A stretch of 64,000 nucleotides of DNA, taken from assembly GCA_959602645.1 (NCBI GenBank), contig CAUGTZ010000008.1, positions 3,149-67,148 of the forward strand, given 5' to 3'. Under the pieces are notes generated by a model. That model had not been told where the DNA came from and made no database searches. It worked only from the letters and a program-made list of their open reading frames with translations. Origin of the DNA: an uncultured Collinsella sp. GTDB taxonomy: Bacteria > Actinomycetota > Coriobacteriia > Coriobacteriales > Coriobacteriaceae. This document shows, piece after piece, positions 739-44,258 of the stretch; the first letter of the stretch is position 1; each line of letters opens with the position of its first letter. Both the position numbers and the translations under genes were made by a program.

Positions 739-1167
739 TTAGGCCATCTTGTTGAGCATGTCGACACGGATCTGGTGACGGCCGCCAGCGTACTGGGCAC
801 GCAGGAACTCGCGGGCGATCTTCTTGGCGACCTCGGTGCCCACAACGCCCGGGCCCATGGTGACCATGCGCGAGCCGTTGTGCTCGCGGGTCATGTAGGC
901 GGAACGCTCGTCGGAAATGTTGGCGACGACCATGCCCTTGATCTTGACGGCGGCCATATAGGAGCCGACGCCGTACTTATCGAATGCGAAACCCTGGGAA
1001 TCCTTGTGCTCCAGCAGGTCCTTGGCAACGGCGGTCGCGGAATCAACAAAGTCCGCGGCAGGGGTCTCGGAATAGTCGACGACCTCGTGACCGTCGGCGA
1101 TGAGCATCTCCTTGATGGACTCCTTCATCGACATACCGTCGGCATCGGAAGCGATTACAACCCTCAT
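739..1167 (-). CDS. lacA: galactose-6-phosphate isomerase subunit LacA
   Basis: 142-aa ORF of LacA size; RpiB/LacA/LacB-like pattern (VVIASD, GVGSYMAA, ISDERSAYMTREHN); paired with lacB. Confidence 0.85.
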   Translation of the reverse strand: MRVVIASDADGMSMKESIKEMLIADGHEVVDYSETPAADFVDSATAVAKDLLEHKDSQGFAFDKYGVGSYMAAVKIKGMVVANISDERSAYMTREHNGSRMVTMGPGVVGTEVAKKIAREFLRAQYAGGRHQIRVDMLNKMA

Positions 1168-1338: not shown

Positions 1339-1368
1339 ACCGTTCGCGGATGATTGATAACCGTTTGG
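1339..1368 (+). promoter_or_regulatory. phased direct repeat ACCGTT(N15)ACCGTT, 21-bp register
   Basis: ACCGTTCGCGG at 1339 and ACCGTTTGG at 1360; same architecture at four other sugar promoters in the window. Confidence 0.5.
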
Positions 1369-2955: not shown

Positions 2956-3294
2956 TTAGGCGAGCTTGGCCTCGAGCTCGGCGATGCGCTTGTAGGCATC
3001 GATGGTAAAGCGGGTCTGCTTCTCCAGGATCATAGTGGTCATGAGAGTGTCCTGAGCGTGAGCCATAATGAAGGTCATCTCCATCTCGCCACCGCCGGCC
3101 TCCTGCGAAAGCAGCTTGGTCTGCGTGTCGTGGGCACCGATGAGCGCATCGCTGGCATCCTTGTGCAGCTGCTCGGCCTTCTCAAAATCACCCTCGCGAG
3201 CAGCATCGAGCGCTGCAAGCAGATCGGTCTGGGCGTCACCTGCGTATGCGACGATCTCGAATCCAACCATCGAGATTTCTTCTTTGGTTGCCAT
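2956..3294 (-). CDS. lacF: PTS lactose/cellobiose-family EIIA component
   Basis: 112-aa ORF; EIIA-Lac/Cel pattern (FEIVAYAGDA, KAEQLHKDA, MAHAQDTLM with the conserved His). Confidence 0.85.
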   Translation of the reverse strand: MATKEEISMVGFEIVAYAGDAQTDLLAALDAAREGDFEKAEQLHKDASDALIGAHDTQTKLLSQEAGGGEMEMTFIMAHAQDTLMTTMILEKQTRFTIDAYKRIAELEAKLA

Positions 3295-3376
3295 ATTGCG
3301 TTCCTTTCACATATGAACCAATGGAGAGCATCGCGTCCGGGCATACGCGCTGCGTTCTGTATGGCAGAAACATTAA

Positions 3377-3397
3377 CATTCAAACAAAAAAGAACAA
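3377..3397. promoter_or_regulatory. CATTCAAACA-N5-GAACAA operator-like motif upstream of lacF
   Basis: Same 10-mer as 1282-1291 and 19762-19771; same N5-GAACAA spacing as the copy at 19762-19782. Confidence 0.4.
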
Positions 3398-3419
3398 CGC
3401 AAAACATAATTTCAAGCTA

Positions 3420-3448
3420 TGAACGGTCAATTTTCGCCCGTGAACGGT
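3420..3448 (-). promoter_or_regulatory. phased direct repeat (TGAACGGT x2, 21-bp register)
   Basis: TGAACGGT at 3420 and 3441; the reverse complement reads ACCGTTCACGGGCGAAAATTGACCGTTCA. Confidence 0.5.
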
Positions 3449-3508
3449 TTCCAAACCATTTCGAACAATATCAAACATGATTAACAGAAACCCAAACAGG
3501 ACCGCGCC

Positions 3509-4513: not shown

Positions 4514-4673
4514 AGGTCGATCTTTCTATGTCAACGATGCCATTGGTGGCACCCTACGCAGTCAAATGAAACGTCTTTAAGTATATCTAACGCCTCCTCC
4601 GCCATACGCTCACCACCCAAAACCTACCGTTCACCGACAATCCTGCTTCCCCGAACGGCTTTTGTCGACCAAA

Positions 4674-4869: not shown

Positions 4870-6639
4870 ATGGAGCAACTCATCGCCACCATCGAAAAAG
4901 GCCAGCCCTTTTTCAACGCGATCGCCCGCAACAAGTACCTCAAGGCGATTCGCGACGGCTTTATCTCCGTCATCCCCATCATCATCTTCTCGTCCATCTT
5001 CTGCCTGGTAGCCTCGGTCCCCAACATCTGGGGTTTCTACTGGCCCGATGACATCAACAACGCCCTGTGGAAGTGCTACAACTACTCCATGGGCATCCTG
5101 GCTATCGCCTGCGCCGCCACCACGGCCAAGCACTTCGCCGACGCCCAGAACCGCGACCTGCCCAAGAACAACCAGATCAACTTTATCTCGTGCATGTGCG
5201 CGGCCATCATCGGCTTCTTGCTCCTTTCGAGCGACACCATCGCCACGGACGCCGCCAGCGGCTTCAACACCACCTACCTTGGTTCCAAGGGCCTGCTGAC
5301 CGCCTTCATCGCTGCGTTTGTGACCGGCATCATCTACAAGTTCTTTATCAAGCGCAACATCACCGTCAAGATGCCCGAGCAGGTTCCGCCTAACATCTCG
5401 CAGACCTTTAAGGACATCATCCCCTTCTCCGTCTGCATCACCGTCTTTTGGGTCTTTGACATCGTCTTCCGCGCTGCCTTTGGCTTCTGCTTTGCCCAGG
5501 GCGTCATCCAGGTGTTCCAGCCCCTGTTCACCGCTGCCGACGGCTACATCGGCCTCGCTGTGATCTACGGCGCCATGAGCCTCTTCTGGTTCGTCGGCGT
5601 CCACGGCCCCTCGATCGTCGAGCCCGCCATCGCCGCTGCTCTCGTTGCCAACATGACCGACAACCTGGCTGCATTCCAGGCCGGCGAGCACGCCACCGCC
5701 GTCCTGACGCAGGGCGCCCAGTACTTCGTCGTCTGCATGGGCGGTACCGGCGCCACGCTCGTCCTGGTCTTTATGTTCTGCTTCCTGGCCAAGTCCCAGG
5801 AGATGCGCGCCGTCGGTAAGGCCGCCATCGTCCCCGTGTGCTTTGCCGTCAACGAACCGCTGCTGTTCGCCGCACCTATCGTGCTCAATCCCGTCTTCTT
5901 TGTCCCGTTTGTCTTTGCCCCAATCGCCAACATCTGGATCCTCAAGGTCTTTATCGACTTCTTGGGCATGAACGGCTTTATGTACACCCTGCCTTGGACC
6001 GTCCCCGGCCCCATTGGCACCATCATGGGCCTGGGCTTCCAGCCGCTCGCCTTTGTGATGCTCGCCATCATCCTAGTCGTCGACTTTGCCCTGTACTACC
6101 CGTTCTTCCGTGCCTATGACGCCCAGAAGTGCGCCGAGGAGGCCGAGATCTCCCAGGAGGAGCTCGCCGCCAAGAACGCCGAGAAGGCCGCCAAGCTCAA
6201 CGACGCCTTCCAGGGTAAGGCCGACGCCAAGAGTGTTGCCGCCGGCGCCGCTGCCGAGGTCGTAAAGACCGACGCCGCCCCCGCTGCTGCCGCCACCGAG
6301 GCTTCGGCCGCCAGCGACCTCAACGGCAAGCGCGTACTCGTGCTCTGCCAGGGCGGAGGCACCTCGGGCCTGCTCGCCAACGCGCTGGCCAAGGCCGCCA
6401 AGGAGCGCGGCATCGATCTTGAGACCGCTGCCGATGCCTATGGCAACCACGTGGACATGCTTCCCGACTTTGACCTGGTCGTCCTGGCTCCGCAGGCTGC
6501 CAGCTACCTGGCCGACCTGCAGAAGGACTGCGAGCGTGTGGGCAACAAGTGCGTCGCCTGCCGTGGTAAGCAGTACATCGAGCTCTCCCAGAACGGCGAC
6601 AAGTCTCTCGCCTTCGTGAGCGAGCAGCTGTCGAAGTAA
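4870..6639 (+). CDS. lacE: PTS lactose-specific EIICB component (cassette 1)
   Basis: 589-aa ORF; EIIC-Lac N-terminus (KGQPFFNAIARNKYLKAIRDGF), Ala/Glu-rich linker, C-terminal EIIB with VLVLCQGGGTS. Confidence 0.9.
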   Translation: MEQLIATIEKGQPFFNAIARNKYLKAIRDGFISVIPIIIFSSIFCLVASVPNIWGFYWPDDINNALWKCYNYSMGILAIACAATTAKHFADAQNRDLPKNNQINFISCMCAAIIGFLLLSSDTIATDAASGFNTTYLGSKGLLTAFIAAFVTGIIYKFFIKRNITVKMPEQVPPNISQTFKDIIPFSVCITVFWVFDIVFRAAFGFCFAQGVIQVFQPLFTAADGYIGLAVIYGAMSLFWFVGVHGPSIVEPAIAAALVANMTDNLAAFQAGEHATAVLTQGAQYFVVCMGGTGATLVLVFMFCFLAKSQEMRAVGKAAIVPVCFAVNEPLLFAAPIVLNPVFFVPFVFAPIANIWILKVFIDFLGMNGFMYTLPWTVPGPIGTIMGLGFQPLAFVMLAIILVVDFALYYPFFRAYDAQKCAEEAEISQEELAAKNAEKAAKLNDAFQGKADAKSVAAGAAAEVVKTDAAPAAAATEASAASDLNGKRVLVLCQGGGTSGLLANALAKAAKERGIDLETAADAYGNHVDMLPDFDLVVLAPQAASYLADLQKDCERVGNKCVACRGKQYIELSQNGDKSLAFVSEQLSK

Positions 6640-9567: not shown

Positions 9568-9598
9568 ACCGCTTACCGAACAAATACAACCGTTCGCG
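9568..9598 (+). promoter_or_regulatory. phased direct repeat (ACCGCTTACCG ... ACCGTTCGCGG, 21-bp register)
   Basis: Units start at 9568 and 9589, with an AT-rich spacer AACAAATACA. Confidence 0.5.
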
Positions 9599-9638
9599 GC
9601 TGTTTGAAGTTGTTTTGTTTCTATACATCCCAGCCGGA

Positions 9639-9674: not shown

Positions 9675-9789
9675 TTTTGGTTCTAATCATTTTAAGATAG
9701 TGTTTACCGGGCTTTTTCACCGCTGAACGCTAACCAGGGAGCCTCCTGAGCGCAAACGCACAATATCGAACAGCGAGACGAGAGGGTGT

Positions 9790-11238
9790 ATGCATATGTC
9801 TTTGCTAAACCGCGTACAGCAGCTGCCGAAGGGCTTTGTTTGGGGCGCCGCAACCGCCGCGTACCAAACGGAAGGTTCCACGAAGGTGGCAGGCAAGGGT
9901 AAGACCATGTGGGACGATTACCTTGTCGCCCAGGGTCGCTTTTTGCCCGACCCGGCCAGTGATTTCTACAACCGCTACGAGGAGGATATCCGCCTTTCTG
10001 CCGAGCATGGACTCAACGCCATTCGTGTGTCCATCGCCTGGACCCGCATCTTCCCCAACGGCGACGATGCCGAACCCCTCGCCGAGGGCGTTAAGCACTA
10101 CCACGAGCTGTTCGCCTGCTGCAAAAAGTATGGCGTCGAGCCCTATGTGTCCCTGCATCACTTTGACTCCCCCGCCGCCCTGTTCAACCAGGGCGACTGG
10201 CTCAACCGCAAGACCGTCGACGCCTATGTGCGCTATGCCGAGTTCTGCTTCCGCGAGTTCCGCGAGGTCAAGAATTGGTTCACCATCAACGAGCTCATCA
10301 GCCTCTCGCACTCCCAATACATCCAAGGCAACTTCCCGCCCAACCATCACTTTGATGTGACGAGCGGCATCCAGAGCCAGCACAACGAGCTCGTTGCCCA
10401 CGCCCGCGCCGTCAACCTGTATAAGGATCTTGACGAGACCGAGCACCTGGGCGGACGCATTGGCATGGTCAACGTCCTGACGCCGGCATATCCTGCCACC
10501 GACTCGCCCGCCGACCAGCACGCCGCCGACCTGTACAACGCCTTCTACACCGACTTCATCATGGACGGCGCCTTCCTGGGTCACTACTCCGCGCGCACCC
10601 TCTCACTCATCAACGAGATTCTGCGTGCCAACAACGCCACACTTACGGTTGAGGACAGCGACATGGAGGAGCTCGCCAAGGCGGCGCCCCGCAACGATAT
10701 GTTCGGCCTCAACTACTATCAGTCGGCGTTTATCGCCGCCTACGATGGCGAGTCAACCAACAGCTTTAACGGCACCGGAGACAAGGGCACCTCGTGCTTT
10801 AAGTTTAAGGGCGTCGGGCAGCAGGTCGATATGCCGGGTATCCCCACCACCGACTGGGATTGGCTCATCTACCCGCAAGGCCTCTACGACACGCTCAAGC
10901 ACATCAGCGCCACCTATCCCAACCTCCCCGTCATCTATATCACCGAAAACGGCCTGGGCCACAAGGACCCCGAGCCCGACGCAAACGGCATCGTCGCCGA
11001 TCCCGAGCGCATCGACTTTGTCGACCAGCACATGGAGAAGGTGCTCCAGGCGCGAGCCGAGGGCGTCGACGTCCAGGGCTACTTTATCTGGAGCCTGCAG
11101 GACCAGTTCTCGTGGGCCAATGGCTATAACAAGCGCTACGGCCTGTTCTACATCGACTTCGACACGCAAAAACGCTACATCAAGCAGTCGGCACTCTGGT
11201 ACAAGGAGCTCGCCGACACTATGGCGGACGCGCAGTAG
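9790..11238 (+). CDS. 6-phospho-beta-galactosidase-like GH1 (cassette 2)
   Basis: 482-aa ORF; FVWGAATAAYQTEG, TINEL, ITENGLG; more diverged than the other two paralogs. Alternative start at 9796. Confidence 0.85.
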   Translation: MHMSLLNRVQQLPKGFVWGAATAAYQTEGSTKVAGKGKTMWDDYLVAQGRFLPDPASDFYNRYEEDIRLSAEHGLNAIRVSIAWTRIFPNGDDAEPLAEGVKHYHELFACCKKYGVEPYVSLHHFDSPAALFNQGDWLNRKTVDAYVRYAEFCFREFREVKNWFTINELISLSHSQYIQGNFPPNHHFDVTSGIQSQHNELVAHARAVNLYKDLDETEHLGGRIGMVNVLTPAYPATDSPADQHAADLYNAFYTDFIMDGAFLGHYSARTLSLINEILRANNATLTVEDSDMEELAKAAPRNDMFGLNYYQSAFIAAYDGESTNSFNGTGDKGTSCFKFKGVGQQVDMPGIPTTDWDWLIYPQGLYDTLKHISATYPNLPVIYITENGLGHKDPEPDANGIVADPERIDFVDQHMEKVLQARAEGVDVQGYFIWSLQDQFSWANGYNKRYGLFYIDFDTQKRYIKQSALWYKELADTMADAQ

Positions 11239-13432: not shown

Positions 13433-14434
13433 CTACGCCCGCAAGTCCTTTACGCTGGAACGCTCGACCAACACGCCCGAGACGAGCGTACGGCTTCTGG
13501 AGCTCGGAGCTTCCAGACCCGCGACGACCTCGTTGAGCGCACGGACGCCCAGCTCGCGGTGGCGAAACTTCACCGACGTCAGAATCGAGTTGGGAATCGT
13601 CTTATAGAGCTCATCGTCGAAGCCGATCACGGACACATCATTGGGCACACTGAGCCCTTTGTCACGTAGAGCCATCATCACGCCGTTTGCCATGCAGTCG
13701 TTAGCAGCGAGGACCGCCGTGCAATCGGGCTTATCGGCAAGCACAAGGCCCGCGGCATAGCCACTATCCGCATTCCAATCGCCTTGCAGAGGCTCGGGCG
13801 GCTCAATGCCACGCGCCTCGAGTGCCGCACGCCAACCTTTCATACGGCACTGGCTCGACAACGACTCTTTCTTACCAGAGACGAAGTACACGTTTTTATG
13901 CCCGTGGTTCAAGAAGTACTCGCACGCCATGCGCGCGCCGCCCTCTTGGTCGTCACTGACGGTGGAGCAGGTAGGATGTTCCATCGGTGTGATAATCACC
14001 GTCTTGAGGTCTTTCGGTGCCTCAAAAGTATCAAAGTCATCGACCATCTGACGCAGGTTGAAGATCATGCCATCAACAGGCAGCTGCGACATCCTACGCG
14101 CCGCTTCGGCAAGGGTCATCTTCTCCCCCGCCCGCTTTTTGATCATCGTGAGCGCAAAGCCGCGTTCTTCGGCGGCATCTGCGATACCGTCAATCATGTC
14201 CACGGCACCGCCCGACAAGTGGAACAGCACCACGCCAATGCACCCGTAACGGCCCAACTTGAGCGAACGCGCGGCAAAGTTGGTTCGAAACCCGAGCGCC
14301 TCCATTGCGGAATGAACCTTATCGCGTGTCGACTCTCGCACGCTATCGGGCTCGTTGATCACACGCGAAACCGTCTTGAGAGAAACACCCGCAGCAATCG
14401 CCACATCGTTCATTGAGACATTTTTCTTGTCCAT
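13433..14434 (-). CDS. LacI-family transcriptional regulator (cassette 3)
   Basis: HTH MNDVAIAAGVSLKTVSRVIN plus sugar-binding domain. The ORF is open to 14512; ATG at 14434 preferred (GGAGAAG upstream and paralog alignment). Confidence 0.85.
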   Translation of the reverse strand: MDKKNVSMNDVAIAAGVSLKTVSRVINEPDSVRESTRDKVHSAMEALGFRTNFAARSLKLGRYGCIGVVLFHLSGGAVDMIDGIADAAEERGFALTMIKKRAGEKMTLAEAARRMSQLPVDGMIFNLRQMVDDFDTFEAPKDLKTVIITPMEHPTCSTVSDDQEGGARMACEYFLNHGHKNVYFVSGKKESLSSQCRMKGWRAALEARGIEPPEPLQGDWNADSGYAAGLVLADKPDCTAVLAANDCMANGVMMALRDKGLSVPNDVSVIGFDDELYKTIPNSILTSVKFRHRELGVRALNEVVAGLEAPSSRSRTLVSGVLVERSSVKDLRA

Positions 14435-14516: not shown

Positions 14517-14547
14517 ACCGTTTACCGGACAATATCGACCGCTCACC
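14517..14547 (+). promoter_or_regulatory. phased direct repeat (ACCGTTTACCG ... ACCGCTCACC, 21-bp register)
   Basis: Units start at 14517 and 14538, with an AT-rich spacer GACAATATCG. Confidence 0.5.
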
Positions 14548-14612: not shown

Positions 14613-14718
14613 TTTCGCAATGCCTTCCTTAAGCAGGAAGGTTTCCGGGCAGTCCTGACCATCCATCGACGACCAGTTCCATCCACATGCATCGCGCATC
14701 AAGTAGCAAAGGAGCTCT

Positions 14719-16497
14719 ATGGACGCCATCGTAAAGATGCTCGAAAAGCATCAACCGTTCTTCGAGAAGATCTCGAGAAACATCTACCTCCAGGCCATCA
14801 AAGACGGATTCCTTGGGTGCATGCCCATCGTCCTTACCTCTTCGATCTTTCTGCTGATCGCCACCCTTCCCGGCGTAGTTGGAATCACGTTGCCCCAGCC
14901 GCTCATCGACTGGTGCAACAAGCTGTACAACTTCACCATGGGCGTCATGGGCATCATGGTTGCCGGCACCACCGCCAAGAACTTTACGGCTTCCATGAAC
15001 CGTCGCATGCCCGCCGGCAAGGTGCTCAACGACGGCTCCACCATGGTTGCCGCCCAGTGCAGCATGCTGCTGCTCGCTGTTACGCAGTTCACCACCAAGT
15101 TCAACGGCTCCGAGCTTTCTGTCTTCGATTGCATCAGCATGGGTACGCGCGGTCTGTTCTCGGCCTATATCGCCGCGTTCATTACCGTGTGGGTCTATAA
15201 GTTCTGCGTCTCGCGCGATCTGACCATTAAGCTGCCCAAGGAGGTTCCGGGCGCCATCGCACAGAACTTCCGCGACATCATCCCCTTCGGTGGCGCTGTC
15301 ATCATTTGCGGCATCATCGATGTGGTTGTGCGCAACCTCATGGGCGTTCCGTTCTCCGAGCTGCTTATCAAACTGCTCTCCCCGCTCTTCACTGCGGCAG
15401 AGACCTACCCCGGACTCATCCTTATTCAGGCAGCCACCGCGTTCTTCTGGTTCATCGGTGTCCACGGCCCTTCGATTGTCCAGCCGGGCATCGACCCCAT
15501 CCGTCTTGCCAACCAGGCCGAGAACCTGCAGGTTCTGCTGGCCGGTGGCCACCCCGCCCACTCCCTCACCTTTAACATGTCGCTCGTGGGTGAGTTCGGC
15601 GGCACCGGCGCCACGTTCATCGTTCCGCTTCTGCTGATTCTCTTTATGAAGTCCAAGCAGCTCAAAGCCGTCGGTAAGGCCTCGATTGTTCCTGTTGCCT
15701 TCGCCGTCAACGAACCGCTGCTCTTTGGCGCGCCCATGATCCTCAACCCCTACATGCTCATCCCCTTTGTTGCCGCCGGCTGCGTCAACGTAAGTGTTGC
15801 CAAGTTCTTTATCGACAACGTGGGCATGAACGGCTTCTCCTTCGTGGTGCCTTGGGCTACCCCTGCCCCCATCGGCATCTTCATCACCACGAACTTCCAG
15901 CTTATCGCCCTGGTATTTGTCGCGATCATCATCTTGCTGGACGCCATCATCTACCTGCCGTTCTTGAAGGCATACGATAAGCTGCTCTGCGACCAGGAAG
16001 CCGAGCGCGCCGCCGAGCTGGGTCTCGAGTCCGATGGTGCTGCCACCATCGCCGCCAGCACCTCTGCGCCCGCTATCGAGCAGGCCACCGCTGCCGTCGA
16101 GCCGACCGCCGCTGCCGCTGACAGCAAGCCTGTCGCCGATCAGCCCGAGCCCGCTGCCGATGCATCCGCTAAGAAGGATGTCGACGGTCTGAAGGTCCTC
16201 GTCCTGTGCGCCGGCGCCGGCACCTCTGCCATGCTTGCCAACGCCATCAAGGAAGGTGCCGCGCAGACCGGAGAGAACATCGCTTCCTCCGCAGGCGCCT
16301 ATGGCCAGCACACTGCCATCATGGATCAGTACGACGTTATCGTGCTTGCCCCGCAGGTCCGTAGCTACTACAACGACATGAAGGCCGACACCGATCGCCT
16401 GGGCATTAAGCTGCTCGCCCCGCGCGGTAAGGAATATATCGACCTTACTCGCGACCCCGCTGGCGCCATCAAGTGGCTCCGCGAGAACCTCGACTAG
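14719..16497 (+). CDS. PTS lactose-family EIICB component (cassette 3)
   Basis: 592-aa ORF collinear with lacE1 and lacE2 (KHQPFFEKISRNIYLQAIKDGF; VLVLCAGAGTS). Confidence 0.9.
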   Translation: MDAIVKMLEKHQPFFEKISRNIYLQAIKDGFLGCMPIVLTSSIFLLIATLPGVVGITLPQPLIDWCNKLYNFTMGVMGIMVAGTTAKNFTASMNRRMPAGKVLNDGSTMVAAQCSMLLLAVTQFTTKFNGSELSVFDCISMGTRGLFSAYIAAFITVWVYKFCVSRDLTIKLPKEVPGAIAQNFRDIIPFGGAVIICGIIDVVVRNLMGVPFSELLIKLLSPLFTAAETYPGLILIQAATAFFWFIGVHGPSIVQPGIDPIRLANQAENLQVLLAGGHPAHSLTFNMSLVGEFGGTGATFIVPLLLILFMKSKQLKAVGKASIVPVAFAVNEPLLFGAPMILNPYMLIPFVAAGCVNVSVAKFFIDNVGMNGFSFVVPWATPAPIGIFITTNFQLIALVFVAIIILLDAIIYLPFLKAYDKLLCDQEAERAAELGLESDGAATIAASTSAPAIEQATAAVEPTAAAADSKPVADQPEPAADASAKKDVDGLKVLVLCAGAGTSAMLANAIKEGAAQTGENIASSAGAYGQHTAIMDQYDVIVLAPQVRSYYNDMKADTDRLGIKLLAPRGKEYIDLTRDPAGAIKWLRENLD

Positions 16498-18235: not shown

Positions 18236-18292
18236 TACCGGTCGCTTGGACACGCCGTGGTACAATTATGCCACGACGCAAAGGAGGTACCC

Positions 18293-18559
18293 ATGTCCGC
18301 TTGTGTGCCCGTCCGAGACATGAAGGACACTGCCACATTCACCGCACTTGTTGAGTCTGAGCGCGACGTCACCGTAACTAAGAACGGCTACGAGGCCATG
18401 CACTGCATCAGCAGCGACCAGTATCGCCTCATGCAAGAAGAAATCGCCAAGGCAAAACTGCTGTCTCGTATGATGTTGGCAGAAGACGAAATATCGCAAG
18501 GCGACTACAGCGACTACGACTCCTTCGCGACCGCGATACGAGACAAATATGACCTATAA
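18293..18559 (+). CDS. type II antitoxin, Phd/YefM-like
   Basis: 88 aa from ATG 18293, preceded by AGGAGG; VPVRDMKD...VTVTKNGYEAM pattern; overlaps the toxin gene by 11 nt. Confidence 0.7.
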   Translation: MSACVPVRDMKDTATFTALVESERDVTVTKNGYEAMHCISSDQYRLMQEEIAKAKLLSRMMLAEDEISQGDYSDYDSFATAIRDKYDL

Positions 18560-18854
18560 CGTCGTTATACTCAAAAGCGCGCGATATGAGTACGAGAGTA
18601 TCGTCGGGTACCTTGCTCAAATCCTCAAGAATCCGCGTGCAGCAGGCAATTTTGTCGCTGAGTTTGAATATCAGCTTGATCTGCTTCGCGAGCAGCCGCT
18701 CCTACGTCCCCTCTCGCATATGCAAGAGCTGGCGGCACGTAATTACCGATCGTTTCCCGTCAACAACTACGTGTGTCTATACAAGTTTGAGCACGAAACA
18801 ATCTATATAGCCCACATCTTTCATCAGTCACAGGACTACGCCCGCCTGGTCTAG
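18549..18854 (+). CDS. type II toxin, RelE/ParE family
   Basis: 101-aa ORF; ParE-like C-terminus (NYVCLYKFEHETIYIAHIFHQSQDY); translationally coupled to the antitoxin. Confidence 0.75.
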   Translation: MTYNVVILKSARYEYESIVGYLAQILKNPRAAGNFVAEFEYQLDLLREQPLLRPLSHMQELAARNYRSFPVNNYVCLYKFEHETIYIAHIFHQSQDYARLV

Positions 18855-18965: not shown

Positions 18966-19730
18966 CTAGCAGATGACCCGCGTGTGTTCCTCGATGGCAG
19001 TGCGGTCCTCGGCGGTAATACCCGGCTCGCACACCACGGCGTCCAGGCTGTCCAGGCGGCAGAAGGTGTAGAAGTCGCGCTTGCCGATCTTGCTGGAGTC
19101 GGCGATCAGATAGCGCGAGTCGGCCTTGCTAAAGGCGAGCTGCTGGATACGGCCCTCGTCCATGTTGGACGTAGACACGTCGCCATCCAGAATGCCGTTG
19201 GCGCCGATAAACGCCGCATCGATGCCCAGCGCACGCAGGGTATCCTCGGCCGTTGGTCCCACAAAAGCGGCGGTGCGGCGACGGTACATACCGCCCACGA
19301 GACACAGGTCGCAGTCTTCGCGCGCCTCGAGCAGGTTAAACACCGAAAGCGAATTGGTCACAATGCGCAGGCGGCACGCCGGCAGCATCGAGGCCATCTG
19401 CTCAACCGTAGTGCCCGTACCCAAAAAGATGGTCGAGCCCTCCTCGATAAGCTCCACGGCGCGGCGCGCGATCTGCAGCTTTTCCTCGGCATGCTTGGTG
19501 CGCTTTTCGCTGTGCGAATACTCATGGCGTAGCATAGCGTGGGGACGGCCCTGTGCACTGCGGGCTCCGCCGTGCACGCGCTCAATCTCGCCCAGGCTCG
19601 CAAGTTCCTCAAGGTCGCGGCGGATCGTCATGTCCGAGACGCCTAACGCATCTGAGATCTCCTTAACCGAGACCGTGCCCTGCTCTTCGAGCAGCTGACG
19701 AACCCTATCCTGTCGCTCTGCCTTAATCAC
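18966..19730 (-). CDS. DeoR/GlpR-family transcriptional regulator (LacR/AgaR-like)
   Basis: N-terminal wHTH (RVRQLLEEQGTVSVKEISDALGVSDMTIRRDLEEL) plus DeoR C-terminal sugar-phosphate domain. GTG at 19730 has a GAGGA RBS; the ORF is open to GTG 19757. Confidence 0.85.
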   Translation of the reverse strand: MIKAERQDRVRQLLEEQGTVSVKEISDALGVSDMTIRRDLEELASLGEIERVHGGARSAQGRPHAMLRHEYSHSEKRTKHAEEKLQIARRAVELIEEGSTIFLGTGTTVEQMASMLPACRLRIVTNSLSVFNLLEAREDCDLCLVGGMYRRRTAAFVGPTAEDTLRALGIDAAFIGANGILDGDVSTSNMDEGRIQQLAFSKADSRYLIADSSKIGKRDFYTFCRLDSLDAVVCEPGITAEDRTAIEEHTRVIC

Positions 19731-19761
19731 GATGAATCCTCGCCGTTCTTTGCGCACATAT

Positions 19762-19782
19762 CATTCAAACAGTAACGAACAA
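19762..19782. promoter_or_regulatory. CATTCAAACA-N5-GAACAA operator-like motif in the deoR/galM divergent region
   Basis: Third identical copy of the 10-mer, with the same N5-GAACAA spacing as 3377-3397. Confidence 0.4.
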
Positions 19783-19936
19783 ATTGTATCAGACTCGTGC
19801 GCGTCAAAAATGAACGCCCGCACAGCTCCAATCATCACTTTTTTGAGAAAAATACCCCCTGCTTTAGTGGGGTGTAGTGATAATCTCGCCTGTTCGCGCT
19901 ACAGTTTGTCGGAAATACCTCGATGTTAGGAACCAA

Positions 19937-21954: not shown

Positions 21955-22030
21955 GCCAGCGTAGCTCAGTTGGTAGAGCACCGCTCTCGTAAAGCGGGGG
22001 TCACCGGTTCGAGCCCGGTCGCTGGCTCCA
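21955..22030 (+). tRNA. tRNA-Thr (anticodon CGU) with encoded CCA
   Basis: Cloverleaf read by hand: acceptor GCCAGCG/CGCTGGC, D arm GCTCAGTTGGTAGAGC, anticodon stem CCGCT/AGCGG with loop CTCGTAA, T arm ACCGGTTCGAGCCCGGT, then TCCA. Confidence 0.9.
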
Positions 22031-31865: not shown

Positions 31866-32308
31866 TAGATGCCGTCCTCGTCGCCGAAGATATCCTCTTC
31901 CTCGGAGCCGGCAACGGATGCGACCGTCTGGGCGGTGACGCCCGTCTGGCCAACGGTCACGGCCTGCTCGCCAAGCTCGGCGAGCGTGGCATTGCCGCGG
32001 AGGAACAGAAGCTCAATAACCATGGGAAGGTTGGTGCCAGTCAGAACCTCGACGTTGTCGACATCCTGGGCAATCATCATCGACTGGTTGAACGGGGTGC
32101 CGCCAAGCAGGTCGGTAAAGACGAGCACGCCATCGCACTCCTCGCGCATGGCGGTAATAGCGGCGCGGAGATCCTCACCGTAGGAAGCAGCCTGGTCGCC
32201 CTCAAAAGGAACGACGGTAAAAGCGGGCTGGTCGCCGGCAACCATAGCGATAGCGCTAGCTAGGCCGGGTGCGAACTGTCCATGACCGGTAAGAATAAAG
32301 CCAACCAT
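31865..32308 (-). CDS. PTS mannose/GalNAc-family EIIA component
   Basis: 147-aa ORF; MVGFILTGHGQFAPG with the phospho-His; TDLLGGTPFN. Confidence 0.85.
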   Translation of the reverse strand: MVGFILTGHGQFAPGLASAIAMVAGDQPAFTVVPFEGDQAASYGEDLRAAITAMREECDGVLVFTDLLGGTPFNQSMMIAQDVDNVEVLTGTNLPMVIELLFLRGNATLAELGEQAVTVGQTGVTAQTVASVAGSEEEDIFGDEDGI

Positions 32309-32411
32309 TCAAATTTCCCTTCCGAAGGTGTGTACAATCTGAGTCCGATGATTTTCGGAAGCCAGCGGGCGCTCGCCCTTAAAGCTTCTTAGAAAGCGTT
32401 CTTTGAAGACC

Positions 32412-32439
32412 AGTGGTTTCTAAACTGGTAGTAACCACG
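32412..32439. promoter_or_regulatory. GntR/HutC-type operator upstream of the PTS operon
   Basis: AGTGGTTTCTAAACTGGTAGTAACCACG, containing the 13-mer shared with 28132-28144. Confidence 0.55.
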
Positions 32440-32511
32440 TGACGTGTTGTTGTCACTATATCACCCCAGAAGAGGTCGCTTTCGTTGATTCATACGGTAA
32501 AACGTTTTTGC

Positions 32512-32542
32512 ACCGTTCACGGTGATAAATCGACCGTTTACC
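32512..32542 (+). promoter_or_regulatory. phased direct repeat (ACCGTTCACGG ... ACCGTTTACC, 21-bp register)
   Basis: Units start at 32512 and 32533, with an AT-rich spacer TGATAAATCG; followed at 32555-32566 by TTCTACCTGCGG, the family-B core. Confidence 0.5.
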
Positions 32543-32686
32543 GCTCGTTAATACTTCTACCTGCGGATTTGAAACCGTTTCGAAATGCTTTGGCAAAAGA
32601 TCGGAACTTTTTTTGTGTCTAAACAACGCAGGGCGGCTAAAAATAGCGTGTTGAAAAATTGCAGGTCATTGTGAAGATATGTGAAT

Positions 32687-32721
32687 TGGTCTTTTTGACT
32701 TAATACCAGTTAGAACCAGTT
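32687..32721. promoter_or_regulatory. third GntR-type site, inverted orientation
   Basis: The reverse complement TGGTTCTAACTGGTATTAAG parallels TGGTTTCTAAACTGGTAGTAAC at 32414-32435. Confidence 0.4.
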
Positions 32722-32732
32722 TTGAGATTATC

Positions 32733-32760
32733 GGTGAACGGTAGTTTTCGACCGTTCACC
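32733..32760. promoter_or_regulatory. inverted pair of the ACCGTTCACC motif
   Basis: GGTGAACGGT-N8-ACCGTTCACC, a perfect 10-bp inverted repeat. Confidence 0.45.
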
Positions 32761-33012
32761 GGTTACTTGTAATCGTTTGCAGTCGTTTTCCCAGATGAAT
32801 TAGGGAAACACAATGGAGCGCTTGCGCGATCACGGGAAGTTTTGACATTTGTCCTCATCCCCCGCGCGCCGAACTCCGACACCCAAAACGAGCTAATAGT
32901 TCATGCTAATCGTTTTCAATCATTACTTAGTCAGTATCCCTAATTATTTATCGTTTGTCATTAATTATGATATAAGATACAAGTATCATCCAAGAGATTG
33001 GTTGGAGGGGCT

Positions 33013-33651
33013 ATGATCCGTCGGAACGTATCCGCATCGAATGAAGCCATCGGTCGCGAACAGACAATAGCCGAGCTGAGGAGGCTCACCCGCATCTGCA
33101 AATGGGCCACAATCTGCGCCACTGCGGCACTCGCTCTGGGACTCTTCGCAGTCATTGCAATCGACCTTCTACTCATATTGCCCAGTCTCTCCCAAGGATT
33201 CTGTCTCCAATCCGTAGAACTTCAAGCCGGCGAAGGACCGTGCCTCGCTCTCGTCGGTGCCAATGCACAGACCCCACTTATGCTCATCGCGCACGACGGT
33301 CACACCGCCATGGGGAGCGTCATGATGACATTCCTCGCGCTCGCTATCGCACTGAGCGCATACAAGCTTTTCTCCATCATTGAAAAGGCGGGCAGGCCCT
33401 TTGACCTTGAATGCAGCCGTATGCTACATCGAGTTGGGCTTTTGTTCCTTATCGGCGGCGCTGCCGTGAGACTCCTTGGTGCCATAGTCACGGGATTGAT
33501 GCTTTCAGGATTTGGCGGCAGCTTTACAGATGCCTTCGGCGGCCAGCTGTTCGAGCCCTCTATGCTCTTTGCAGGCCTGATTATTATCCTGATTGCCAGC
33601 ATCTTCCGCTACGGGTGTATCCTGCAAAAACAAGATGACGAGTTGCTCTAG
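33013..33651 (+). CDS. DUF2975-like membrane protein
   Basis: 212 aa from ATG 33013 (GGAGGGG RBS); four hydrophobic spans; precedes a YozG-type HTH gene, a commonly seen pairing. Confidence 0.6.
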   Translation: MIRRNVSASNEAIGREQTIAELRRLTRICKWATICATAALALGLFAVIAIDLLLILPSLSQGFCLQSVELQAGEGPCLALVGANAQTPLMLIAHDGHTAMGSVMMTFLALAIALSAYKLFSIIEKAGRPFDLECSRMLHRVGLLFLIGGAAVRLLGAIVTGLMLSGFGGSFTDAFGGQLFEPSMLFAGLIIILIASIFRYGCILQKQDDELL

Positions 33652-33660
33652 GGGGAATCC

Positions 33661-33900
33661 ATGATCATTCTGCGGCTCGACCGCATGCTCGCCGAACGCA
33701 AGATCTCATCCAAAGAACTTGCGGAACGCGTGGGCATCTCCCAAGTCAATATGTCACGCATTAAGACGGGCAAGGTTTCTGCCATACGTTTTTCAACTCT
33801 TGACGCGATATGTCGGGCACTCGACTGCCAACCGGGCGATGTACTGGAATATATATCCGACGATGAAGCCGATAGCCTTTTTGGACTTAAAGATGAATAG
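33661..33900 (+). CDS. XRE/Cro-type helix-turn-helix regulator (YozG-like)
   Basis: 79-aa ORF; LDRMLAERKISSKELAERVGISQVNMSRIKTGKVSAIRFSTLDAICRALDCQPGD. Confidence 0.8.
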   Translation: MIILRLDRMLAERKISSKELAERVGISQVNMSRIKTGKVSAIRFSTLDAICRALDCQPGDVLEYISDDEADSLFGLKDE

Positions 33901-39671: not shown

Positions 39672-40256
39672 TTACTCGTCAAGTGTTTCGATGCGGGGCT
39701 TGATGATGCCATATCCACCATTCTTACGGTGATACACCACATTGATGAGGCCAGTCGTCGCGTTCTCGAACACGTAGAAGTCGTGGCCGAGCAGATCGGT
39801 CTGCACCAGCGCCTGCTCCTCAGTCATCGGAGTGACATCGATGACCTTCTCGCGGACGAGCAGGTCGTCCTCCTCCTCGGGCAGCAGCAGGTCGGCCAGA
39901 TCCTCGACGCGCTCGACCGGTGCGACATCCGCGGCGCTGGCACCACCCTGGCGGTTGTCCACGACCTTGGTCTTGAACTTGCGCAGCTGGCGGGTGACCT
40001 TATCGGCGGAGAGGTCGATGGCGGCGTACATATCTGCGCCGTGCTCGGCAACGCGAATCACAGAGCCGCGGGCACGAACCGTGACCTCGACGATTGCCGG
40101 GTTGGGGTTCGAGGGGTTCTTCTCATAACGAAGCACGACGTCGACTGTCATGGGCTCGATATCGAAAACCTTGAGCGCCTCGCCGATCTTCTCATCCACA
40201 TGCGCACGCAGAGCATCGGTTACCGTCGTCTTGCGTCCAGAAACCTTGATATCCAT
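39672..40256 (-). CDS. hpf: ribosome hibernation-promoting factor, long form
   Basis: 194 aa from ATG 40256; MDIKVSGRKTTVTDALRAHVDEK N-terminal domain and C-terminal dimerisation domain (HDFYVFENATTG...VVYHRKNGGYGII). Confidence 0.9.
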   Translation of the reverse strand: MDIKVSGRKTTVTDALRAHVDEKIGEALKVFDIEPMTVDVVLRYEKNPSNPNPAIVEVTVRARGSVIRVAEHGADMYAAIDLSADKVTRQLRKFKTKVVDNRQGGASAADVAPVERVEDLADLLLPEEEDDLLVREKVIDVTPMTEEQALVQTDLLGHDFYVFENATTGLINVVYHRKNGGYGIIKPRIETLDE

Positions 40257-40472
40257 ACGTGGCTCCAATCTGCCTCGGGGACTTACTGTACTGGCTATGT
40301 ACCCATTGCCGTGCATTTAATCACCCGAATTCCCAAAGACCCGAATAACGATTGCTTGATACCGCATACCGAAGTCTCGCACTTTTCTGTGGCAAAGTGC
40401 GCTATAGAAGGGAGCCGACGGCTTTGTATTTGGTCCCGAAAATTGGCTTTGACCTGCTGGTTTTATAGGGAT

Positions 40473-41599: not shown

Positions 41600-42081
41600 G
41601 TCCACTACCCTGCCTTCTGTGTCGTATACGATCCGTGCCCTGCACGGAATATCGGGTTGTTCCCACCAGCTGACCTGGTATTTGACCCCACACTTGCGCA
41701 CCGGGGCGTTTGCTCGGGAGGCCGCAGCCACCTTCACGACTGGCCCGCTCGCCCGCGAGGCGGTATTGCCCCAAAGAAAGTAGAACGGACGGTGCGGCTT
41801 ACATCTAGGACGCGCCATGATCGCGCCGCGCGCACGCGGTCGCTTACGTGGATCCCTTTGACCGCGTCTGTCTTGGACTAGGACGGGCATTTCGTCCGTC
41901 CGCAACCACAGCCTGGTAGGAACGAAGCGCATTATAGCTAAGTTCAAGCTAAAGTTTAAGGTTAGGGGCGTCATTCGCATCGCGAGTACAGATTTCGCAG
42001 GTCGGAGTGGGCTATTCGTGCCCCTATGAAGCCCGAAGCTCCCCTGTGGGGAGCTCCGGGACACCCTTCTTAGGGTGCCGT

Positions 42082-43451: not shown

Positions 43452-44258
43452 CTACCAAACGCGTGCGATAGCGAGGCCATCGACTGCTGCAGCGCCGGCA
43501 CGCTTGAGTTCCGCCGAAGCCGCAGCCATCGTCGCGCCCGTGGTGATAACGTCATCGATAAGCAGTAGGCGGCGGCCGTGCACGTCCTCAACCGTCTCGT
43601 ACATGCCTTGGGCACGCTCGCGGCGCTCCTCACGACCGAGTTCGCGCTGGTCGCCATGACCGTACTTGACGAGGGCATCGAGCAGAGGGACACCCGACAG
43701 CTCGCAAAATGGGCGCGCAATGGCCTCCATATGATCGAAACCGCGCCGCCGAAACGCTGCCGCCGTCGCAGGCACAAACACCACCGCATCCGCACTGGAC
43801 AGCACACCTCCTAAGCGTTCGGGCGCTACGATCTGGGCATGCAGGGCGGTGTCGTAGAGCAGCTCCGCCAGATACGGAGCCAGACGTCGCTCGCCCGCGT
43901 CCTTGTAAGCTTTAATGATGCGCGGCAGCGGATGCGCATAGACGGCGCACGCCAAGCAGCGGTCGAGCGCCTCCGACATTGCCGAGGACGTGCCCTCGAC
44001 CGAACACTCAGTGCACAGCAAATCCCCAAACGGGGCGCCGCATCGGGTACAGCTATGACGTGGGTCGATGAGCGTGAGCGCGGCCAGACAGTCTTGGCAA
44101 ATAAGCGCACCGGCGCGCTCGCAGCCGGCACATCGTGTTGGCGACAATGCCTCGAGCGCCTCGTGTGCCGCCCGCTCGGCAAACGGTAGTAATTCGTCCG
44201 CAAACGGTAGGGCACCGGCACCCTGCAGACAGCTCAATATGTTCAGATGGCTCTTCAA
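43452..44258 (-). CDS. comFC: ComF-family protein (ComFC, phosphoribosyltransferase domain)
   Basis: 268-aa ORF; N-terminal Cys pairs (CAGCE...CQDC, CTRCG...CTEC) and PRTase motif LLLIDDVITTGATM. Confidence 0.85.
   Translation of the reverse strand: MKSHLNILSCLQGAGALPFADELLPFAERAAHEALEALSPTRCAGCERAGALICQDCLAALTLIDPRHSCTRCGAPFGDLLCTECSVEGTSSAMSEALDRCLACAVYAHPLPRIIKAYKDAGERRLAPYLAELLYDTALHAQIVAPERLGGVLSSADAVVFVPATAAAFRRRGFDHMEAIARPFCELSGVPLLDALVKYGHGDQRELGREERRERAQGMYETVEDVHGRRLLLIDDVITTGATMAAASAELKRAGAAAVDGLAIARVW

Follow-up and report, generated by a model that had tools for sequence, protein, structure and literature searches.

The question raised by this locus is whether a short direct repeat that precedes several sugar-catabolic operons is the operator of one shared regulator and, if so, which kind of protein binds it. 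The locus is a stretch of 64,000 nucleotides (hereafter the window) from an uncultured Collinsella sp. (assembly GCA_959602645.1, contig CAUGTZ010000008.1, positions 3,149 to 67,148 of the forward strand). It has a G+C content of 60% and was placed in the Collinsella aerofaciens group by exact-protein and relative searches. The best 80 loci in the relative search were all from Collinsella or Coriobacteriaceae, each with an identical LacF, and one window protein appears in over 25,000 data blocks of the public collection of assemblies. The window encodes LacB, LacA, LacF (EIIA), a membrane protein without assigned function, a DeoR-family regulator (18966-19757) and three paralogous cassettes, each made up of a LacI-type regulator, lacE (EIICB) and lacG (6-phospho-beta-galactosidase). 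The genes of the N-acetylgalactosamine (GalNAc) pathway are agaS, nagA, pfkB, a GntR-type regulator and a mannose-family phosphotransferase system (PTS), here called the aga PTS, the first gene of which ends at 32308. An earlier note on this DNA had named lacAB, lacF, the three lacE/lacG cassettes, the aga PTS and the DeoR gene, all correctly, and had proposed that ACCGTT repeats at five of their promoters are bound by one trans-acting regulator, possibly the DeoR protein. Our analysis leaves little doubt that the repeats are a real operator of a shared regulator; the protein itself is better explained by another family.

A 30-bp direct repeat upstream of sugar operons

The element spans 30 bp and consists of two imperfect units of 9-11 nt, ACCG(T/C)T(C/T)(A/G)C(S)(G), whose starts lie 21 bp apart across a 12-nt spacer. 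All spacers have a G at position 2 and an A/T-rich core. ACCGYTYRC occurs 16 times in the window against 5.5 expected, a number reached in none of 100 shuffles, and the phased form ACCGYT-N15-ACCGYT occurs six times against 0.02 expected. When the same-strand spacings of the 6-mer core are plotted as a histogram, 21 bp accounts for six pairs, and any other spacing up to 80 bp for one at most. A weight-matrix scan for pairs, which permitted 20-22 bp, returned seven pairs in the window, all of them 21 bp apart; 30 shuffles yielded no pair. These sites had served to train the matrix; the spacing result is independent of that training. The view that exact 21-bp phasing is unlikely to have arisen by chance is thus borne out. 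All five sites reported previously were recovered at their positions and on their strands (unit starts 1339/1360, 9568/9589, 14517/14538 and 32512/32533, plus; 3448/3427, minus), and two further pairs were found at 32751/32772 (plus) and 44208/44187 (minus).

The lacAB operator (1339-1368, plus strand) reads ACCGTTCGC-ggatgattgata-ACCGTTTGG and faces away from lacA (739-1167, minus strand). This orientation can be explained by the homologous repeat at locus L191, which faces a divergent DeoR orthologue, presumably the ancestral arrangement. Between lacF and lacAB lies the gene for the membrane protein (1476-2489, minus), a predicted product of 337 aa without a Pfam or NCBIfam match; its position is held in C. 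stercoris, L094 (another Coriobacteriaceae lineage) and L191 by the DeoR gene or a shared divergent promoter, and the gene looks like an insertion that split an ancestral lacF-lacA control region. The lacF operator (3419-3448, minus; ACCGTTCAC-gggcgaaaattg-ACCGTTCAT) faces lacF (2956-3294, minus), and a predicted extended -10 element, TGTTAATGT (3370-3378, minus), lies 40 nt past its second unit.

In the cassettes, the operator of cassette 2 (9568-9597, plus; ACCGCTTAC-cgaacaaataca-ACCGTTCGC) faces lacG2 (9790-11238) from a position upstream of LacI-type operators, and that of cassette 3 (14517-14546, plus; ACCGTTTAC-cggacaatatcg-ACCGCTCAC) faces lacE3 (14719-16497), likewise upstream of a LacI-type operator. 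Cassette 1 has a single strong unit, tACCGTTCACcga (4626-4634, plus), upstream of lacE1 (4870-6639), and in this genome that unit lacks an intact partner at the 21-bp distance. The clean unit claimed for this cassette is therefore present, and the degenerate 22-bp pair claimed with it dissolves into weak matches with scores of about 9. The LacI-type palindromes of each cassette are separate from the repeats and lie downstream of them; the earlier distinction between the repeats and the LacI-type and GntR-type operators of the same regions was sound.

Two sets of repeats precede the aga PTS operon (start codon 32308, minus strand). The proximal operator (32512-32541, plus; ACCGTTCAC-ggtgataaatcg-ACCGTTTAC) is reversed relative to the operon, and 51 nt separate it from a predicted extended -10 element downstream, TGATATAGT (32455-32463, minus). 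The distal cluster (32734-32780) begins with an inverted unit, GTGAACGGT (32734-32742, equal to ACCGTTCAC on the minus strand), followed by a 21-bp-phased plus-strand pair, ACCGTTCAC (32751-32759) and ATCGTTTGC (32772-32780). The inverted pair described earlier at 32733-32760 is present, and its right arm is the first unit of this direct pair.

Other elements share the aga upstream region (32309-32790). Besides the two sets of ACCGTT repeats, two GntR-type operators occur there, at about 32409-32440 and 32697-32720, and a cre-like palindrome, TGAAACCGTTTCGA, at 32565-32578. About 470 bp upstream of the aga PTS are almost invariant in 10 strains; further out the sequence varies or gives way to other DNA. 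Two promoters, or a small transcript missing from the annotation, may reside in this region. Its conserved edge coincides with the insertion/deletion boundary of a strain-variable gene pair (32998-33900; missing in L004 and L007) whose products are a membrane protein of 217 aa and an HTH_3/XRE protein of 79 aa. The orthologue of the membrane protein gave a faint DUF2975 match in two of 10 related strains.

The remaining pair (44179-44208, minus; ACCGTTTGC-ggacgaattact-ACCGTTTGC) lies within the 5' end of a ComF-like open reading frame (ORF; 43452-44258, minus) and, read as codons, encodes LPFADELLPFAE. It is kept without insertions or deletions in six further Collinsella contigs, including its CTA and TTT codons, and the preceding 45 nt vary freely. 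Genes in this genome have roughly 70-85% G+C at third codon positions, so that CTA and TTT should be rare. The comF pair is only a possible functional site.

Several other descriptions of the repeat were considered and set aside. The first aga unit contains 6-bp inverted arms (CACCGT-TC-ACGGTG), which most units lack, and the units are direct repeats and not the 14-16-bp palindromes with central CG of CcpA/cre or LacI-type operators. An ECF-sigma promoter (AAC...CGTT) was rejected on spacing, 21 nt and not 16-17 nt, and on inconsistent orientation. An RNA element is unlikely given that the repeats occur in both orientations and upstream of predicted promoters; an Rfam scan of the window returned only a raiA RNA and one tRNA, and nothing at the repeat sites.

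The leaders of the lac genes show similarities of their own. The lacF and lacA 5' leaders (3320-3345 and 1225-1250, both minus) have ATGCCCGGAC in common, and the lacE/lacG leaders carry CCGGGC beside or inside hairpins, such as CCTTCCTtaagcAGGAAGGTTTCCGGGC in cassette 3 (14625-14665 and 9700-9725, both plus, in the window; 9870-9905 in L091; 14215-14235 in L094). These sequences may be an attenuator of the lac genes or a conserved RNA element in their leaders; a gene for a BglG-type antiterminator is absent nearby.

Conservation, promoter geometry and reach of the element

Across 80 species-level Collinsella genomes, all 157 pairs detected have the 21-bp spacing, and all map to the sites of the window. 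At lacAB, 31 pairs exceeded the scan threshold in related Collinsella genomes, again with no other spacing. Among 37 unique orthologous lacF sequences the units are 99-100% conserved, with lower values for the spacer (90%) and the flanks (92-93%), and among 61 unique lacAB sequences conservation is 96-98% in the cores, 91% in the spacer and 82% in the 3' flank. Only at these two promoters are the units better conserved than both spacer and flanks; those of aga, cassette 2 and cassette 3 are almost invariant throughout within the C. aerofaciens group. In relatives, cassette 3 shows what looks like site turnover, unit 1 degenerating and unit 2 gaining in strength.

More distant lineages provide the more telling comparison. 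In C. stercoris, whose LacE is 71% identical, TACCGTTTAC-cgctagatatct-ACCGTTTAC lies 127 nt before lacF and a weaker pair precedes lacE. L094, with a LacE 73% identical, has pairs before both genes. The spacing is always 21 bp, and the spacers and flanks are unrelated to those of the window. The architecture thus recurs at homologous promoters of related species, and its retention while the surrounding sequence differs supports the proposal of a shared operator, bound by one trans-acting regulator, for PTS sugar operons.

The position of the repeats relative to promoters was compared by means of predicted -10 elements. An extended -10 element, TGnTAnnnT, lies 40-41 nt past unit 2 at lacF of the window, of C. 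stercoris and of L094, and at cassette 2; TAnnnT is found at the equivalent offset before kduD of Parolsenella. By this prediction the unit centres would fall near -61 and -82, on the same helical face, and the proximal unit would end about 20 bp upstream of the -35 element. A sigma-70 scan at lacF returned TTGACC-16-TATGTT, which overlaps unit 2; the result is ambiguous, and of the two assignments, neither of them proven, the lineage-conserved extended -10 is preferred. The local operators (LacI-type, GntR-type and a second motif, TGTTYGA, described below) lie at or after the predicted promoters. Thirteen of 17 distinct sites face the downstream gene, a bias expected for an orientation-dependent activator.

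The element reaches well beyond the cassettes to which the regulon had seemed confined. A scan of metagenome contigs with ACCGTTYRC-N12-ACCGTTYRC gave 120 matches. About one-third or more of these were tandem heptad arrays, (ACCGTTC)n, which fit the pattern because their periodicity (3 x 7) is 21, and were set aside as noise, as were many further matches on environmental contigs without an evident link to the motif. Long ACCGTTC or ACTGTTT heptad arrays were seen on many environmental contigs (L111, L113, L135, L139, L147, L149, L152, L170 and others). The recurrent sites have A/T-rich spacers and lie on contigs of 54-66% G+C. By Pfam annotation, those on Collinsella contigs precede a BglG-type antiterminator with a beta-glucoside EIIBC (L143), EIIA-Glc with an antiterminator (L120), a gene set in which a LacI-type regulator is followed by two GH32 genes on either side of a sucrose-type EIIBC (six contigs of the L144 class; scr), arcA for arginine deiminase, in reverse orientation (L174 class), and an adhesin, that is, a secreted beta-helix surface protein (five contigs of the L141 class). 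Others precede mupG (L208) and, in L191, the DeoR orthologue divergent from lacA. A site in Parolsenella (L128) precedes genes for a KduD-like dehydrogenase and KdgT (kduD-kdgT); it came from the scan with the spacer fixed at 12 nt and hence is no independent test of spacer length. Exact-protein look-ups of six neighbour proteins returned Collinsella aerofaciens, C. intestinalis, Collinsella sp. and Parolsenella catena. From this distribution, the ACCGTT repeat is the operator of a global, mostly catabolic regulon and not of a tagatose-pathway one.

The protein that binds the repeat

The repeat resembles the operators of regulators with a LytTR DNA-binding domain. LytTR sites consist of two direct or inverse repeats of 9-11 nt with 11-13 nt between them (PMC4847170), and their consensus has been given as [TA][AC][CA]GTTN[AG][TG], with repeats 12-13 bp apart upstream of the -35 element (PMC5600425). 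The window contains seven direct pairs and one inverted unit; the spacer measures 12 nt in all seven, in all 157 Collinsella pairs and in C. stercoris and L094; and ACCGTTCAC fits eight of the nine consensus positions. The AlgR sites CCGTTCGTC, CCGTTTGGC and CCGTTCATC (PMC4064291) begin with 7-8 bases (CCGTTCG, CCGTTTGG and CCGTTCAT) that equal positions 2-9 of the units ACCGTTCGC, ACCGTTTGG and ACCGTTCAT. An oligonucleotide bearing the E. coli YehT/BtsR site contains ACCGCTTAC-atccctaaaata-ACCACTCAG, the first unit of which is identical to unit 1 of cassette 2.

Operators of the type bound by BtsR of E. coli (YehT, at yjiY/btsT) and AlgR of P. aeruginosa thus resemble the present element in several respects: units of 9 nt built around (A)CCG(T/C)T, a direct-repeat arrangement with an A/T-rich spacer of 12 nt and a 21-bp period, and an occasional inverted unit. 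The systems differ in reach: BtsR controls essentially one transporter gene, its partner btsS being annotated in E. coli as a high-affinity pyruvate receptor, and AlgR uses scattered single 9-mers, whereas here a dozen or more mostly catabolic operons of a Gram-positive actinobacterial lineage carry the element and a LytTR partner is only proposed. Operators of the AgrA/ComE/PlnC type also comprise two imperfect 9-bp direct repeats 12-13 bp apart upstream of the -35 element, and the proximal AgrA repeat is centred near -60 (PMC4227749), as predicted for lacF. However, their core is ACAGTT or TACGTT and not ACCGTT, and the systems to which they belong govern peptide signalling, bacteriocins, virulence or competence, mostly from genes beside their targets, unlike the mostly catabolic, chiefly sugar-related targets and the unlinked regulator of the present case. 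Class I CRP sites and CcpA/cre offer a functional analogy only: they impose a global input over operon-specific regulators, and a position of -61 resembles that of a class I CRP site, but they are palindromes for symmetric dimers, whereas the element here is a direct repeat.

Two matches of the metagenome scan adjoin LytTR genes. In Myxococcota, the 30-mer ACCGTTCGC-ggtcgagtttcg-ACCGTTCGC, nearly identical, spacer included, to the Collinsella adhesin site ACCGTTCAC-ggtcgattttcg-ACCGTTCAC, stands directly upstream of an operon for an Ldi-like secreted protein, a protein of 81-83 aa, a PF06580 histidine kinase and a REC-LytTR regulator. A copy of this operon with 96% identity retains the 30-mer (L107 79-108, L222 901-930); in L224 (about 2655-2684), where the regulator is 63% identical, it is degenerate in the first unit. 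The Myxococcota ACCGTTCGC-N12-ACCGTTCGC sequence is a candidate autoregulatory site of an uncharacterised LytTR system, the kinase of which is without an obvious large sensor domain. The second match, on a contig of 43% G+C (L182), adjoins an agr-like LytTR two-component system. Two other leads failed: the L152 LytTR match concerned a heptad tandem array 7 kb from the gene, and the L138 match a LuxR-type regulator.

In the explanation that best accommodates these observations, the 30-bp element would serve as the operator for a single global transcription factor that acts in trans in Collinsella and related Coriobacteriia. This factor would add a common input to lactose-type PTS cassettes, lacF, lacAB, the GalNAc PTS, beta-glucoside and sucrose PTS operons, EIIA-Glc, arginine deiminase and others, each operon also remaining under its own local regulator of the LacI, GntR, DeoR or BglG-type antiterminator kind. 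Its most likely identity would be a regulator with a LytTR domain, such proteins typically being response regulators of LytS/BtsS/AlgZ-type kinases, and a LytTR dimer could bind with one domain per unit on the same helix face and activate from about -61/-82. We judge the assignment to the LytTR type to be evenly poised between right and wrong. In the most economical model, an upstream global activator would be combined with local repressors or antiterminators acting at or after the promoter. The motif, its phasing, its conservation and its neighbouring genes are established by the data; that the factor activates and does not repress, like its family and any signal it receives, is what we infer. 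A bolder proposal, which we hold tentatively and with more doubt than conviction, is that a LytS/LytT-type (BtsS/BtsR-like) system has expanded in Coriobacteriia into a CRP-like global catabolite activator working from about -61/-82 at a dozen or more operons. Elsewhere such a system is a narrow pyruvate or nutrient sensor of one transporter; here it would gate PTS sugar, arginine deiminase and surface-protein operons above their local repressors or antiterminators.

Several observations weigh against this explanation. Footprinting discriminates only weakly among the nearly invariant promoters of the C. aerofaciens group, and the units of cassette 3 are less conserved than their flanks. Four sites (lacAB, two aga sites and arcA) are reversed, and the distance to a recognisable -10 element is not constant except at lacF, cassette 2 and kduD, all promoters being predicted. 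The repeat pair is missing from the beta-glucoside PTS operon at the right end of the window, and the factor would therefore be global but selective and not a regulator of all PTS operons. Unit position 9 is C where the published LytTR consensus has T or G, and the suggested link to LytTR draws on motif resemblance and two unrelated taxa. No LytTR-domain gene was found among the window ORFs scanned with Pfam and NCBIfam, which were most of them, or in the flanks (about 7 kb on the left and about 10 kb on the right, the latter judged by precomputed Pfam annotation). A phmmer search with BtsR and AgrA against every ORF of the window and of the other loci covered by the search (about 2 Mb) likewise found none in Collinsella contigs, the matches lying only in non-Collinsella contigs. 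The named matches of a homologue search seeded with the Myxococcota LytTR regulator were all from Myxococcota and none from Collinsella. The unannotated proteins examined were membrane or secreted-looking, or spurious antisense ORFs.

The binder could instead be a DeoR-family protein, either the LacR-like DeoR of the window or a SugR-like global paralogue, that oligomerises on the phased repeats and represses PTS operons until a sugar phosphate releases it. A DeoR orthologue (62-78% identity) does lie within the lac/tagatose cluster in four lineages (the window, C. stercoris, L094 and L191), so that the gene is linked to regulated genes; in L191 an ACCGTT repeat occurs 142 nt upstream of its start codon, and in C. 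stercoris one occurs in the DeoR-lacAB/lacF intergenic region. In the window, however, the region upstream of the DeoR gene (19758-19876) has no ACCGTT repeat and carries a second motif, TTGTTC-N5-TGTTTGAA. This motif, a series of TGTT(T/C/G)(G/A)A(A/T) repeats, is found in the window at lacAB, lacF, cassette 2 and the DeoR promoter (1278-1291, minus; 1335; 3379-3386 and 3454-3477, minus; 9601-9614, plus; 19764-19771, minus), with 14 of 20 window matches in intergenic DNA, which makes up 13.7% of the window; A/T-richness explains part of this excess. Related TGTT-rich repeats occur at the lac locus of C. stercoris (L091, 7890-7935), where the DeoR-lacAB promoter has three of them about 10 bp apart, in L094 between lacF and lacA (14140-14170) and in L191 upstream of the DeoR orthologue (515-565). 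The half-site of E. coli DeoR is TGTTAGAA. SugR of Corynebacterium glutamicum, a pleiotropic actinobacterial PTS repressor of the DeoR type, recognises a 21-bp non-palindromic site with the motif ACAAAC...AACA (PMC2222622). SugR is thus a precedent for the coordination of several unlinked PTS operons through a site of this length, but its A+C-rich motif lies within or downstream of promoters and fits TGTTYGA, not ACCGTT. TGTTYGA resembles both the SugR and the E. coli DeoR sites and is probably the operator of the LacR-like DeoR protein, which therefore has a better operator candidate than ACCGTT. Moreover, the ACCGTT repeats lie upstream of predicted promoters and not over them, and their occurrence at scr, bgl, EIIA-Glc, arcA, the adhesin, comF and, in Parolsenella, kduD takes them outside a regulon confined to the galactose-6-phosphate/tagatose-6-phosphate pathway. 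The candidacy of the DeoR protein put forward in the earlier note thus fares poorly, and binding by any member of its family appears improbable.

An activator of another family, be it AraC/XylS-type (including YesN-type response regulators) or undescribed, would also fit the period, since AraC and XylS half-sites are 21-bp repeats and such proteins typically govern sugar operons. A semi-conserved A/T-rich block about 10 bp past each unit could be a second contact box of a protein with two helix-turn-helix motifs, and the phmmer search placed no LytTR gene near any Collinsella site. This second block is weak, however; as with LytTR sites, each repeat is conserved mainly in one contiguous block of 9-11 nt, its core matches that of AlgR, BtsR and LytTR sites, and the proximal unit does not overlap the -35 element by the predicted -10. 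AraC-type sugar regulators are usually local and not global; no AraC-family gene was seen beside any site, and none turned up when most window ORFs and the left flank were scanned with Pfam and NCBIfam. We consider such a binder unlikely, if a serious competitor. That there is no shared regulator at all, the similarity being chance or a leftover of duplicated promoter DNA, might be suspected from the paralogy of cassettes 1-3 and from the close similarity of promoters within the C. aerofaciens group, which gives conservation by itself little weight. The excess of phased sites over expectation speaks against chance. Duplication is contradicted by the restriction of the similarity to the 30-bp element without its flanks, by its presence at the non-paralogous aga, arcA, scr, bgl and kduD, by the retention of phasing while spacers diverge between lineages and by the shift of strength between the two units of cassette 3. 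The recurrence of the element across lineages and operons effectively refutes this reading, to which we assign almost no probability.

Other features of the window and biological meaning

Three features of the window stand apart from the repeats. A gene pair for a Phd/YefM-like antitoxin and a ParE toxin (18257-18854, plus) lies between cassette 3 and the DeoR gene. The raiA RNA (Rfam RF03072, 149.5 bits; 41661-41921, minus) is located upstream of a ribosome hibernation factor gene (39672-40316, minus), and the tRNA is at 21955-22027.

Collinsella is among the most prevalent gut Actinobacteria, and our literature searches found no description of a transcriptional regulon or a global carbon regulator for this genus. 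The 30-bp operator can be used as bait for the regulator and for genome scans of the full regulon, which would help to predict which host and diet sugars are used together, including lactose-type galactosides, GalNAc, sucrose and beta-glucosides. Direct-repeat operators and LytTR sites are well known; a LytTR-like operator over many mostly catabolic operons would be an unusual use of the family. If the factor is indeed of the LytTR type, this would extend the family from quorum sensing and pyruvate uptake to global catabolic control.

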